A stretch of DNA of 5,269 nt from a virus (lineage: Duplodnaviria > Heunggongvirae > Uroviricota > Caudoviricetes). The stretch's first letter is position 1. Every line of letters begins with the position of its first letter. The position numbers and the translations under genes are program-made. Location of the stretch: the IMG/VR virus record IMGVR_UViG_2778261641_000005, positions 1 to 5,269 of that record; one strand, written 5' to 3'. Positions 1,744 through 5,043 of the stretch are shown here, in pieces. The notes under the pieces are model-generated. The model saw nothing but the letters and a program-made list of their open reading frames with translations, was not told the origin of the DNA and did no database searches.

Positions 1744-2808
1744 ATGTCACAGAACTGGATGAGACATTTCGAGCTGCAGCTTGTGGACGGGAACGGTCAG
1801 GGAATTGAGCTAAGTGATTTTAAAGTCACCTTTACGATCGACTGGTTCAACATCAGCAGCGCGTCCCGGGTAGGGACTATCAAAATTTATAACCTCTCGG
1901 CAGATACTGTGAACCGAATCACCGGGCAGGAGTTTTCGAAAGTGCGTCTGATTGCCGGTTACGACGGTATCGCGCCGGAGGTGTCGGCAAGCGACGTCGG
2001 GACCGTGCGGGAAGTTGACGCGGCGGACGTGGGTCAGAGTGATGGCCGCAATTACGGGCTGATTTTCAGCGGAGAAATTCGCTACTCGGTCACAGGAAAA
2101 GACAGCCCTATTGATTCCTATGTCCTGATTCAGGCAGCAGATACGGATCTGGCATTTGCCACCAGTATAACCTCGCAGACGCTGGCGGCCGGTTACACGG
2201 TCGCAGATGTGAACCGTGCGCTGATGAAAGACTTTGAGGCCAAAGGCGCGACCGAAGGACTGACGCCTGAAATGCCTGCTACCGTATTCCCTCGAGGGCG
2301 GGTGCTGTTCGGCATGACACGGCATCTTATGGATAACGTGGCCGGACAATGTGGCGCAACATGGCAATTTGTGGACGGTCAGCGCCAGATGGTGGCGAAT
2401 AACGAGTATGTTCACGACGCGATTGTGCTCAACAGAGCCACCGGGCTTATCGGCATGCCGCAGCAGACTATCGGCAACGGTGTAAACGTCCGCGCTCTTA
2501 TTAATCCGAACATCCGGGTTAACGGGCTTATTCAGCTGGATCAGGCTTCCGTGTACCGCACCGCGCTGTCGAACAATGATATTGCGATGGCTGGTGGGCA
2601 GATCACCGACCAGAACACGGACGGAAATATCACGCTCAGCGGCACCACAGCACAACCTGCCAGCATCGCAACGGATGGCGTTTATATTGTGCGCGGGATT
2701 ATGTACACTGGCGATACAAGGGGCCAGGCGTGGTACATGGATATGATGTGCGAAGCGCGTGGCGCGGCGGATCTTCAAAGTCAAGGAGCAATGAATCGGT
2801 GGGGATAA
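1744..2808 (+). CDS. Putative baseplate hub-like protein (354 aa; gp27/gpD/Mu gp44-like position)
   Basis: GGAG at 1734-1737 lies 6 nt upstream of ATG 1744. The ORF starts 2 nt after the upstream stop. Size and position (after tape measure, before spike) fit a hub protein in a contractile-tail baseplate module. Family not confirmed. Confidence 0.75.
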   Translation: MSQNWMRHFELQLVDGNGQGIELSDFKVTFTIDWFNISSASRVGTIKIYNLSADTVNRITGQEFSKVRLIAGYDGIAPEVSASDVGTVREVDAADVGQSDGRNYGLIFSGEIRYSVTGKDSPIDSYVLIQAADTDLAFATSITSQTLAAGYTVADVNRALMKDFEAKGATEGLTPEMPATVFPRGRVLFGMTRHLMDNVAGQCGATWQFVDGQRQMVANNEYVHDAIVLNRATGLIGMPQQTIGNGVNVRALINPNIRVNGLIQLDQASVYRTALSNNDIAMAGGQITDQNTDGNITLSGTTAQPASIATDGVYIVRGIMYTGDTRGQAWYMDMMCEARGAADLQSQGAMNRWG

Positions 2809-2810
2809 GA

Positions 2811-3275
2811 TTGAATAAGAAAGCCATTTTTATTGCAATAAGTTTACTTGTTCCGATGTCGGGATTATCCGCTCCTGGGAAGTATGAAAAAATGGCTGTT
2901 GATTTAATGGATCAGCAAAAGTTTACGCAGTGGCAACATTACGCCTCTGCTACTCCTTTTTTCGCTATGAATGGTCGCAGATTCGCCATGACCATTGATG
3001 ATTTCGCGGATATAGTCAGCAACTCCTTTCAAGAATGCGAAGACCTGGATGCCTACACCAATCGGAAAGGAGCTACGGATGATTGTAAGTCCTATGTTTA
3101 CAAAGGCATAAAGGAGTGGGTAAACCTCTCTCAAGATAAGTCTGTTAGCGATACAGCATGGAAAATGGGCCAGCGCTATGCCTTCAACACACGTAATCCT
3201 ATTGCCCATAAAAACGCATGGGATTTCAATGGGATGGCGGCCGGTATTCGCGTTGCTAAATCTCAAGGTTATTAA
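2811..3275 (+). CDS. Secreted/periplasmic protein of unknown function with N-terminal signal peptide (cargo gene)
   Basis: Proposed TTG start at 2811 gives MNKKAIFIAISLLVPMSGLSAPGKYEK..., a classic positively charged n-region plus hydrophobic core; GGTGGGG lies 7-13 nt upstream. The open frame reaches back to GTG 2730, but that would overlap the hub gene by 78 nt and bury the signal peptide. The mature part has two Cys (QECEDL...DDCKSY) and no recognised motif. The gene is AT-rich relative to the flanking structural genes. Confidence 0.6.
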   Translation: MNKKAIFIAISLLVPMSGLSAPGKYEKMAVDLMDQQKFTQWQHYASATPFFAMNGRRFAMTIDDFADIVSNSFQECEDLDAYTNRKGATDDCKSYVYKGIKEWVNLSQDKSVSDTAWKMGQRYAFNTRNPIAHKNAWDFNGMAAGIRVAKSQGY

Positions 3276-3344
3276 GTCATGGATGCACCGAAAATCATCG
3301 GTTCTTTCCCGTGTAAAAAAGTGGCTGGGCGATGATTTTTGACG

Positions 3345-3360
3345 TCCATAATATTATGGA
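3345..3360. promoter_or_regulatory. Perfect 16-bp palindrome TCCATAATATTATGGA (candidate operator)
   Basis: The sequence is exactly self-complementary. It lies in the AT-rich intergenic region immediately 3' of a TTGACG hexamer (3339-3344). Confidence 0.5.
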
Positions 3361-3437
3361 TGAACTGTTGCCAATTGCGCTAATTTTAACAAAATAATAC
3401 TGGTTAACGCATTTTTTGAACCATCTGTACACAGTAG

Positions 3438-3466
3438 TTGTCTATACTTTACCTTAAAGGTAAACT
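3438..3466 (+). promoter_or_regulatory. Candidate sigma70-like promoter overlapped by a perfect 17-bp palindrome TTTACCTTAAAGGTAAA (3448-3464)
   Basis: TTGTCT (3438-3443), 17-bp spacer, TAAACT (3461-3466); alternatively TATACT at 3443-3448 as the -10. The palindrome has 8-bp arms around a central A and overlaps the -10/+1 area, about 35-60 nt upstream of the ORF starting at 3501. Hexamer matches are imperfect. Confidence 0.35.
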
Positions 3467-3500
3467 CTGCGCTCCACTGATGTTCACTATGGGAGGGGAT

Positions 3501-3740
3501 ATGAGGAAAATCGTTAATCGTTACTTAGCCGCTGCCGGTAGTGTTATGGACATTATGCCGACTACAGATTACTGGCAATATGCTGCTTCTGGATCTGATT
3601 GTCGGGCAATAAGAAGTGATGTTAAAGTCATTGCAAGTGACATGAACAGAGTTATCAGGTATGAGTTCAAAACCCCGCAAGCAGGCGGCCGTTCTCAAAA
3701 AGCATCAGGAAAACAAAGCGTCGCAAAAAGCCGTTCCTGA
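3501..3740 (+). CDS. Small basic hypothetical protein (79 aa); possible regulator or partner of the downstream membrane protein
   Basis: Strong Shine-Dalgarno GGGAGGGG (3491-3498) sits 2-4 nt before ATG 3501. The frame is open from TTG 3438, but the RBS favours 3501. The C-terminus is Lys/Arg/Ser-rich. The last 80 nt overlap the next ORF in another frame, so reality is uncertain. Confidence 0.45.
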   Translation: MRKIVNRYLAAAGSVMDIMPTTDYWQYAASGSDCRAIRSDVKVIASDMNRVIRYEFKTPQAGGRSQKASGKQSVAKSRS

Positions 3741-4233
3741 TTCGGATGGTATCGACGAAGATATTGATTCCTCGGAATATGATGAGTCTCAGGAAGTAGT
3801 GGAAAAGCTGTCTGCAGTTGCCAACCTTGATCCTGAGCTAAAATCGAAGTTAACACCTGAACTTCTTGAGAGAGTTTCTAAGAACCCGAAGGTTATTGCC
3901 ATGTTTCAGCAGGAGTCTTTTCAGGGACCACTCCCACCTCCTGCTATGCTCTTACAATATAATCAAATATTACCCGGCGGCGCTGAGAGAATTTTCAGGC
4001 TAACCGAAAAAGAGCAAGAGCATAGGCATAAGACGCAAAGTGATGCATTACTTGGTGCGGTTTCACGCGACAAACGTGGGCAATGGATGGGATTTTGCAT
4101 TGCAATGGTAGTGCTTATAATGGCTGCGTTTTTTGCTAATCGCGGTAACACTTGGTTCGCAGGTACTCTTGCTACTTTAGATCTCGTAGGATTAACTACA
4201 GTGTTTGTTTATGGTAGGAAGAAACCTAAATAA
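3661..4233 (+). CDS. DUF2335-like predicted membrane protein (190 aa)
   Basis: Contains FQGPLPPPAMLLQYNQILPGGAERIFRLTEKEQEHRHK, which I recall as the hallmark of the DUF2335 family (motif recall, not searched). This is followed by two predicted transmembrane helices (WMGFCIAMVVLIMAAFFA and FAGTLATLDLVGLTTVFVY) and a basic tail GRKKPK. The N-terminus is a charged low-complexity region. ATG 3661 is the only start in the open frame, and its own SD is weak (AGGT). Confidence 0.7.
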   Translation: MSSKPRKQAAVLKKHQENKASQKAVPDSDGIDEDIDSSEYDESQEVVEKLSAVANLDPELKSKLTPELLERVSKNPKVIAMFQQESFQGPLPPPAMLLQYNQILPGGAERIFRLTEKEQEHRHKTQSDALLGAVSRDKRGQWMGFCIAMVVLIMAAFFANRGNTWFAGTLATLDLVGLTTVFVYGRKKPK

Positions 4234-4248
4234 TCCATACATCCTTTC

Positions 4249-4276
4249 AAACCCGCTTCGGCGGGTTTTTTGCTTT
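4249..4276 (+). terminator. Rho-independent terminator
   Basis: Stem AAACCCGC (4249-4256), loop TTCG (4257-4260), stem GCGGGTTT (4261-4268), running into a T tract (4266-4271) then GCTTT. It lies 16 nt after the TAA stop at 4231-4233. Confidence 0.8.
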
Positions 4277-4290
4277 CTGGAGCCTACTAA

Positions 4291-5043
4291 ATGGCCGTAT
4301 CTGACCAAACCCGCAGCGGCGACCTTGCCGAAACATTCAAATCTGAACGGGAAACCACAAAGAACCAGATCCGCGTCGCTTTGCCTGGCATTATTCAGTC
4401 ATTCGATCCTGACGCGGTTACGGCGGTTGTGCAGCCTGCTATCCGTTACGTTGAGATCGATAACGATGGTAACCGGGTGACAAAACCTTACCCGCTGCTG
4501 GTGGATGTTCCCGTGGTATTCCCAACGGCCGGGGGAGTTACTTTAACGTTGCCGGTGAGCCCCGGCGATGAGTGCGAACTTAAGTTTCAAGACCGCTGTA
4601 TTGATTTCTTCTGGCAAAACGGTGGAGTGCAGGAACCTGTCGACGACCGCATACATGACCTGTCCGACGCCACCTGCTCAGTGGGTCAAATATCTCAGCC
4701 CAACAAAATTAAGAATGTCAGCACCACGTCGGCGCAGCTTCGAAGTGTTGATGGAAGTACGTACATCGACCTTAATCCGGATACGCAGAAAATTAAAATC
4801 GTAGCGCCTGGCGGTCTGGATGTAGTTACCCCGCTGGCCGACTTCTCGGCGAAAGTAACCATTCACGGGCTACTGTCCTGGCTGGGTGGAATGGTGGGGT
4901 CTGTTGCTTCTGGAGTTGCATCCAAAATCACCGGCGCTGTCGAGTTTATCGGTACCGTTAAAGCTAACGGCAAGTCAATTGATGATACGCACACGCACGG
5001 CGGGGTTCAGCGAGGCGGAAGCAACACAGACGGGGTGAACTGA
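4291..5043 (+). CDS. Baseplate central spike / baseplate assembly protein V-like (250 aa)
   Basis: GGAG at 4279-4282 lies 8 nt before the ATG. The N-terminal region resembles gpV/Gp138-type spike proteins. The C-terminus has a Gly-rich region ending in DDTHTHGGVQRGGSNTDG, with a His-x-His motif like the apex of P2 gpV-type spikes. Position is directly upstream of the next baseplate gene. Confidence 0.85.
   Translation: MAVSDQTRSGDLAETFKSERETTKNQIRVALPGIIQSFDPDAVTAVVQPAIRYVEIDNDGNRVTKPYPLLVDVPVVFPTAGGVTLTLPVSPGDECELKFQDRCIDFFWQNGGVQEPVDDRIHDLSDATCSVGQISQPNKIKNVSTTSAQLRSVDGSTYIDLNPDTQKIKIVAPGGLDVVTPLADFSAKVTIHGLLSWLGGMVGSVASGVASKITGAVEFIGTVKANGKSIDDTHTHGGVQRGGSNTDGVN

Follow-up and report, generated by a model that had tools for sequence, protein, structure and literature searches.

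A perfect 16-bp palindrome (P1) within a prophage cargo region is tentatively read here as an operator-like site in a weak or decayed, dispensable distal promoter module of a mobile two-gene cassette, a reading to which we give a probability of about 0.45. The spare module would lie at the far left end of this cassette, which sits in a late tail operon, and expression of the cassette would most likely be driven and controlled from a proximal block (3411-3500) that combines a predicted promoter with a second palindrome (P2).

The cargo slot and its two-gene cassette

The window, by which we mean the whole 5269-base stretch of DNA analyzed, corresponds to the part of a tailed prophage that encodes its baseplate. 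Closely related prophages are integrated in E. coli beside tRNA-Arg and intS; they are lambdoid and combine a P22-immunity early region with a contractile-tail late region. The main features of the window are:

852-1439, Dit-like protein
1439-1741, plug
1744-2808, hub
2811-3275, plus strand, gene A, 154 aa with a signal-peptide-like N-terminus and no family; first cargo gene of this variant
3279-3335, plus strand, surviving 3' end of a displaced gene (A'), finishing with MDAPKIIGSFPCKKVAGR and the stop
3345-3360, no strand, P1
3501-3740, plus strand, small ORF of 79 aa, with a strong Shine-Dalgarno sequence (GGGAGGGG, 3491-3498) and without RefSeq annotation
3661-4233, plus strand, DUF2335 membrane protein gene
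4249-4268, plus strand, intrinsic terminator that every cargo variant has, marking the slot's right boundary
4291-5043, spike

The interval between hub and spike (2811-4290) is a mosaic, recombining cargo slot, whose boundaries were seen in the window and in L002, L003, L004, L121 and L122. Its flanks are common to about 300 complete E. coli genomes, and the cargo varies: a YafO-family toxin pair in L004, two hypothetical genes in L003, and a 170-aa gene in phage 689R2, where an overlapping gene directly follows A'. GC content drops from about 0.55 in the tail genes to 0.39-0.45 across 2800-4300, a difference of 10-15 points that bears out the preliminary description of P1 as lying in cargo DNA. 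The DUF2335 cassette occurs in 16 of 5426 complete E. coli genomes (98.8-100% identity), as a single copy per genome and always in this slot; 15 of the 16 carry A', a small, secreted-looking gene, rather than A. The stop codon of A' (TGA, 3333-3335) delimits the swappable cassette on the left and lies 9 bases ahead of P1, which thus starts 10 bases inside the cassette's left edge. P1 accompanies the cassette regardless of the left-hand gene and is missing when other cargo fills the slot. The palindrome is indeed intergenic, as first described, being placed between gene A and the small ORF; the gap around it is not all spacer, since 3279-3335 is the remnant of A'. BLAST searches for the cassette in collections of phages and plasmids returned nothing useful. 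Among the individual copies, the prophage of E. coli KSC64 (L001) is internally deleted, with a truncated head-morphogenesis pseudogene fused to the baseplate plug gene at 1156-1740, and its cargo cassette and P1 are intact despite that deletion. Another E. coli assembly, with a window-like gene A plus cassette (L105, 2501-3072), has DUF2335 split into two calls of 113 and 95 aa, which looks like a frameshifted copy.

The DUF2335 "moron" is a two-gene unit, consisting of the small ORF and the DUF2335 membrane protein gene, with a terminator. The small ORF overlaps the start of DUF2335 by 80 bases in another frame and matches PHROG 26284 (E = 2e-12), and a profile search retrieved 87 cluster representatives, nearly all of 60-90 aa. 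At all loci examined, the DUF2335 gene has a homolog of the small ORF directly upstream or overlapping it, among them the loci of Klebsiella phage RAH1, Citrobacter, Providencia, Proteus, Pluralibacter and many IMG/VR prophages. The small ORF had no match in a word index of 5.8 billion proteins, because gene callers miss it, and a Citrobacter homolog was used as the query in its place. Its product is basic at the C-terminus, shows no Pfam, PADLOC or DNA-binding signature, and gave a poor structure model of two helices (pLDDT 54). Defense models matched neither this product nor the DUF2335 protein, and a literature search on DUF2335 found nothing about function.

Morons of lambdoid phages, such as lambda bor and lom, are promoter-gene-terminator units that lie in late operons and are expressed from the prophage. 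The concept is said to go back to work on lambdoid phages by Juhala and colleagues and by Hendrix and colleagues, both in 2000, and PHROG 3996 carries the label "moron". The present cassette is likewise a compositionally distinct, low-GC insert, variably present between conserved late (tail) genes, and it has its own conserved, predicted promoter-like block and its own clear intrinsic terminator. Unlike lambdoid morons, it comprises two genes, one of them unannotated, and has two unrelated perfect palindromes upstream; and whereas those morons are expressed from the prophage, the promoter of the cassette is a prediction.

Symmetry, setting and conservation of P1

The sequence immediately around P1 contains the following elements:

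3339-3344, plus strand, TTGACG, a -35-like hexamer abutting P1 on the left
3345-3360, no strand, P1, the perfect 16-bp palindrome TCCATAATATTATGGA
3343-3362, no strand, extended, imperfect P1 dyad CGTCCATAATATTATGGATG, symmetric at 18 of 20 positions
3361-3366, plus strand, TGAACT, a -10-like hexamer abutting P1 on the right
3368-3395, plus strand, TTGCCA-16-CAAAAT, a weak promoter-like site 7 bases to the right of P1 (9/12 hexamer matches)
3356-3402, a 47-base segment that is missing in the ortholog L073 and takes the right arm of P1 with it

Read directly from the window, P1 is its own reverse complement, with 8+8 arms and no spacer, and can be written as the two-part motif TCCATAAT-ATTATGGA. 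Both its exactness and the adjoining TTGACG had been described correctly. No other perfect palindrome with 8-base arms and zero spacer exists in the window. In the extended dyad, C3343 pairs with G3362, and G3344 and T3361 are unpaired. Dyad symmetry over roughly 12-20 bp is what an operator for a dimeric factor is expected to have, and P1 has it in both its perfect and its extended form.

To judge how unusual P1 is, we ran first-order Markov simulations of matched composition. The probability of at least one perfect 8+8 palindrome was 0.0054 in the 225-bp gap (3276-3500), which upholds the earlier statement that chance is an improbable source there, 0.025 in the low-GC cargo (2810-4290), and 0.09 across the whole window (zero-spacer palindromes only). 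When spacers of 0-4 were permitted, the value for the 170 bases upstream of 3501 was 0.010. The core of P1 (ATAATATTAT) is low-complexity and -10-like, and the Markov model under-predicts such sequence, so these probabilities are optimistic. P1 is locally unusual, yet it is about a one-in-ten event for a scan of a 5-kb window. A related 49-kb prophage (L072) has three palindromes with 8-base arms against 1.64 expected, and two of the three fall within a single 170-bp region, that of P1 and P2.

P1 forms the exact 16-base spacer of a promoter-like frame, TTGACG-16-TGAACT. TGAACT is one base from the TAAACT of the proximal promoter candidate, and the difference, a G at the second position, should cripple it as a -10 element. 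On a rough weight matrix the frame scores 7.1, below the shuffle median of 9.2. None of the promoter candidates adjoining P1, TTGCCA-16-CAAAAT included, scores above shuffled sequence; the latter site lies wholly within the segment missing from L073. The top-scoring hexamer pair touching P1 is on the minus strand (TTGGCA-15-TATTAT, 10.4) and is also not above shuffles. The center of P1 is about 100-120 bases upstream of the likely (predicted) start site, and some 100 bases separate P1 from the conserved promoter block downstream. At the RNA level, the plus strand of P1 is predicted to form a hairpin of eight pairs with an AUAU loop (-9 kcal/mol, z = -3.7 relative to shuffles), and the gap as a whole folds no better than shuffles (z = -0.9). 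We rejected P1 as an intrinsic terminator: the stem is AU-rich and is followed, without a U-tract, by GAACUGUUGCC. A terminator scan of the window matched 4249-4268 and nothing at P1, and a search with the Rfam 15 covariance models gave no match in 3276-3500 even at E <= 1. An rsmX match elsewhere, at 4191-4271, reached 27 bits against a threshold of 56 and is merely the terminator hairpin.

Near-identical copies say little about conservation. The 26 near-identical copies, which represent nine haplotypes, have 11 variable sites in 441 bases; one of these (T3345C, in L097) falls inside P1, and every other copy keeps the palindrome. There is thus no sign of special protection of P1 among them. 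The only moderately diverged ortholog, L073, comes from a Logan assembly and occupies the same slot, with a DUF2335 protein 81% identical to that of the window. Here the left arm of P1 reads TTTATAAT, with two adjacent changes (CC vs TT), and the right arm is absent with the 47-base segment. Direct repeats, ATAATATT (3348-3355) and ATAATACT (3394-3401), border that segment and suggest a deletion in the L073 lineage. The cassette genes of L073 are intact despite the loss of half of P1. Identity between the window and L073 is distributed as follows:

3336-3410, distal region with P1: 67%, plus 48 gap columns
3411-3500, proximal region: 94%
small ORF: 89%
DUF2335 gene: 80% (third codon positions 56%)

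The step from 67% to 94% means that constraint, or recent exchange, starts some 50 bases downstream of P1. P1 itself, compared with the flanking non-coding DNA, is not conserved in L073 as an operator would be.

Farther away, a cassette lineage with 49% protein identity (L133) has CATAATATTAT, an 11-base core shared with P1, placed 18 bases beyond the previous stop codon and 127 bases ahead of the ATG; P1 ends 140 bases before its own ATG. The probability that any of 11 lineages has an 11-mer in common with P1 was 0.009 in a post hoc test, and the true chance is higher, the core being AT-rich and -10-like. The match covers the AT core alone, not the outer TCC/GGA bases, and a search of IMG/VR and the phage collection for relatives of L133, as a test of the 11-mer, found none. 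Exact P1 occurs at 37 loci in IMG/VR, of which 10 are this cassette and the others unrelated AT-rich contigs without common flanks; these are chance matches, and P1 is not a widespread motif. The preliminary description had proposed looking for further copies in the prophage genome, and in L072 there are none with up to three mismatches. The scan at this threshold covered 836 kb, and its only match at a DUF2335 locus, in L120 (13/16), was set aside as chance-level: it is in another intergenic region about 730 bases off, behind another gene.

The proximal control block and palindromes across the family

The sequence between the distal region and the small ORF contains:

3411-3500, plus strand, proximal control block, 94% identical in L073 and thereby above coding DNA
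3438-3466, plus strand, best promoter candidate (predicted), TTGTCT-17-TAAACT
3443-3448, alternative -10 TATACT, 47-52 bases before the ATG, likewise in five other lineages
3448-3464, no strand, P2, another perfect palindrome (TTTACCTTaAAGGTAAA, 8-1-8), which falls within the promoter candidate

P2 is 100% identical in L073, and its half-sites are unrelated to those of P1. At the alternative -10, 7 of the 26 near-identical copies have TACACT (T3445C) in place of TATACT. The surrounding bases 3441-3451 (TCTATACTTTA) resemble the extended -10 favored by the stationary-phase sigma factor RpoS (TCTATACTTAA). When the conserved proximal sequences were scanned as patterns in viral and metagenome contigs, only near-identical copies and chance matches were retrieved.

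We then asked whether unusually long perfect palindromes precede the small ORF in 16 lineages of the cassette (the window, L070, L071, L075, L106, L118, L120, L133, L135-L138, L146, L148, L161 and L162). Within 110 bases upstream of its start they are strongly over-represented (combined P by Fisher's method = 2.8e-7), with P < 0.02 in 5 of the 16 lineages. The palindrome differs in sequence in each lineage, and most overlap or abut the -35 hexamer. Examples are:

L162, TTGCCCATATATGGGCAA, 18 bp
L137, AGTTTGACTCATGAGTCAAACT, 22 bp
L075, GTCAACATgATGTTGAC
L070, ACAATTATcaATAATTGT

The geometry in L162 is the same as that of the P1 frame, with TTGCCC overlapped by TTGCCCATATATGGGCAA, followed by 18 bases and then TAAACT. 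The enrichment indicates that palindromes as putative control sites are a genuine habit of the small-ORF/DUF2335 cassette family. P2 is the window's member of this set; P1 lies outside the 110-base zone. The factor that would bind these palindromes is apparently not encoded in the cassette. In L133 (800-850) a 10-base inverted repeat, GCCAAAACTG ... CAGTTTTGGC, with its halves 27 bases apart, brackets a TAAACT -10 and is a further form of dyad symmetry at predicted cassette promoters.

Candidate binding partners and the possible function of P1

P1 had been described as resembling no known operator (LexA, Fur or CRP), and our comparison agrees. We tried 13 consensuses (LexA, Fur, CRP, FNR, ArgR, IclR, MqsA, HipB, Zur, TyrR, MetJ, NrdR and P22 c2) in a comparison that is a screen rather than a curated search. 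None fits: even the best alignments leave between 3 of 10 and 11 of 23 specified positions mismatched, and Fur, which agrees at 11 of 19, comes closest. A literature search of 8 million papers with the 13-14-base cores of P1 and P2 found neither sequence. No regulator gene is present in the cassette, and the 49 kb of L072 contain no regulon-like further copy of P1.

Two partners had been proposed, and both appear unlikely. The first is the prophage repressor. The operators of the resident prophage type, P22-type c2/Cro sites that in L072 separate the cro gene from that of the LexA-family repressor and include TTAAGACATCTTAAAT, are palindromic and of similar length, like P1, but their half-sites are unrelated, with 6 of 16 mismatches at best, and the immunity region and the remainder of the 49 kb contain no P1-like site. 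The second is the small protein encoded at 3501-3740. Near-identical small proteins stand behind quite different palindromes or none, which argues that this protein is not the specificity determinant.

P1 was also compared with the palindromic, promoter-overlapping operators of Xre/Cro-type helix-turn-helix dimers, such as the MqsA palindrome AACCT-N3-AGGTT (PMC4894380). The dyads described here resemble such operators in their length of 16-17 bp and in their position within or beside -35/-10 hexamers, and the ACCT-N3-AGGT core of P2 is that of the MqsA palindrome, with a different outer base (PMC4894380). P1 itself does not resemble the MqsA motif, from which it departs at 5 of 10 specified bases, and, unlike Xre/Cro-type operators, it has no adjacent regulator gene, lies off the conserved promoter and is not conserved. 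TTACC-N5-GGTAA pairs, which are P2-like, precede a HigB-like/HTH_3 operon in an unrelated metagenome contig (L089). A more ambitious reading, which seems to us improbable, makes P1 and P2 both live operators for two different dimeric regulators encoded by the host or a helper, with P2, in view of its core, perhaps the target of an Xre/MqsA-like antitoxin. An uncharacterized, widespread prophage-borne cassette would on this reading be connected to the stress responses or toxin-antitoxin systems of the host by operators that differ between lineages and are exchanged when the cassette moves.

The suggestion that P1 is a site for a dimeric regulator therefore survives in part. In its favor are the enrichment of promoter palindromes in the family and the way P1 fills a promoter-like frame; against it are the half-deletion in L073 and the lack of a second copy in 49 kb. 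On the reading that we prefer, TTGACG-P1-TGAACT and the weak TTGCCA-16-CAAAAT would mimic the family habit of placing a lineage-specific palindrome over a promoter. The distal module would be dispensable and is probably weak or decayed, because its -10 has a G at the critical second position and because the deletion in L073 takes out the weak promoter as well as half of P1. The anatomy, the cassette boundaries, the poor conservation of P1 and the enrichment of palindromes in the family are observed; promoter activity, protein binding and the status of the module as a relic are what we infer. Any protein that binds P1 would be a dimeric regulator encoded outside the cassette, perhaps by the host or a helper, and neither the c2-type repressor nor the small-ORF product, and its effect would be auxiliary, either tuning a distal start or blocking polymerase arriving from the late operon.

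The chief competitor, which we regard as nearly as probable, is that P1 is incidental: a product of chance, or of a template switch that perfected a quasi-palindrome, in an AT-rich, -10-like spacer at the recombining edge of the cassette. The window-level probability of 0.09 and the three palindromes against 1.64 expected in 49 kb, which amount to no global excess, speak for this explanation; it also accommodates the natural SNP within P1, the loss of half of it in L073 with genes intact, and the want of a partner site, a convincing promoter or a known consensus. The adjacent left-arm changes (CC vs TT) may be of the coordinated type made by template switching. Harder to account for as accident are the local probability of 0.005, a second perfect palindrome 100 bases away in a family whose promoter palindromes are non-random, the exact fit between -35-like and -10-like hexamers, and the 11-mer at an equivalent place in L133. 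An unlikely alternative is that the AT core acts without dimer recognition, as a high-affinity or nucleating site for nucleoid proteins (H-NS or Fis, for instance) that silence the low-GC cargo, as an UP-like element for TTGCCA-16-CAAAAT, or as a leftward -10. The cargo's GC content 10-15 points under that of the tail genes, the first rank of minus-strand TTGGCA-15-TATTAT (10.4) among hexamer pairs touching P1, and the sharing by L133 of the AT core without the outer TCC/GGA all agree with it, but the 15-base spacer is poor, the score does not exceed shuffles, the element is lost in L073, and perfect symmetry out to the terminal GC pairs is neither needed nor explained.

P1 could also act as RNA: in transcripts that read through from the late operon, a hairpin placed 9 bases beyond the A' stop would serve as a 3' stabilizer or processing site. 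The predicted fold (eight pairs, -9 kcal/mol, z = -3.7) and the position just after a stop in 15 of the 16 E. coli genomes, those with A', speak for such a role. We nevertheless consider it very unlikely: the stem is weak and AU-rich, with no U-tract, terminator-scan or Rfam match; the gap folds at z = -0.9; the hairpin is missing from L073; and in phage 689R2 an overlapping gene directly follows A'. Least probable of all, to the point that we would be surprised to see it confirmed, is that P1 and P2 are operators for the small-ORF product as an autoregulator. A built-in regulator would be economical for a self-contained, mobile cassette, and the small protein, basic at its C-terminus, belongs to a family of 87 cluster representatives without known function. 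Yet the small proteins of L075, L146, L138 and L120 are virtually identical (MKATVRRYLRAAGS.LDIAPS...) while their palindromes are different or absent, the half-sites of P1 and P2 are unrelated, and the protein has no Pfam, PADLOC or DNA-binding signature and a model of pLDDT 54.

Taken alone, P1 is at best one more orphan operator-like palindrome before a prophage accessory cassette, quite possibly functionless, and none of its readings would surprise a specialist; it is an ordinary feature of a moron upstream region. Its value is as a pointer, having exposed an unannotated small gene and the two-gene nature of the DUF2335 unit. That unit recurs in many Enterobacterales phages, and its predicted promoters habitually carry lineage-specific perfect palindromes. 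The regulation of an uncharacterized lysogenic-conversion cassette thereby becomes open to experiment, and P2 deserves attention before P1.
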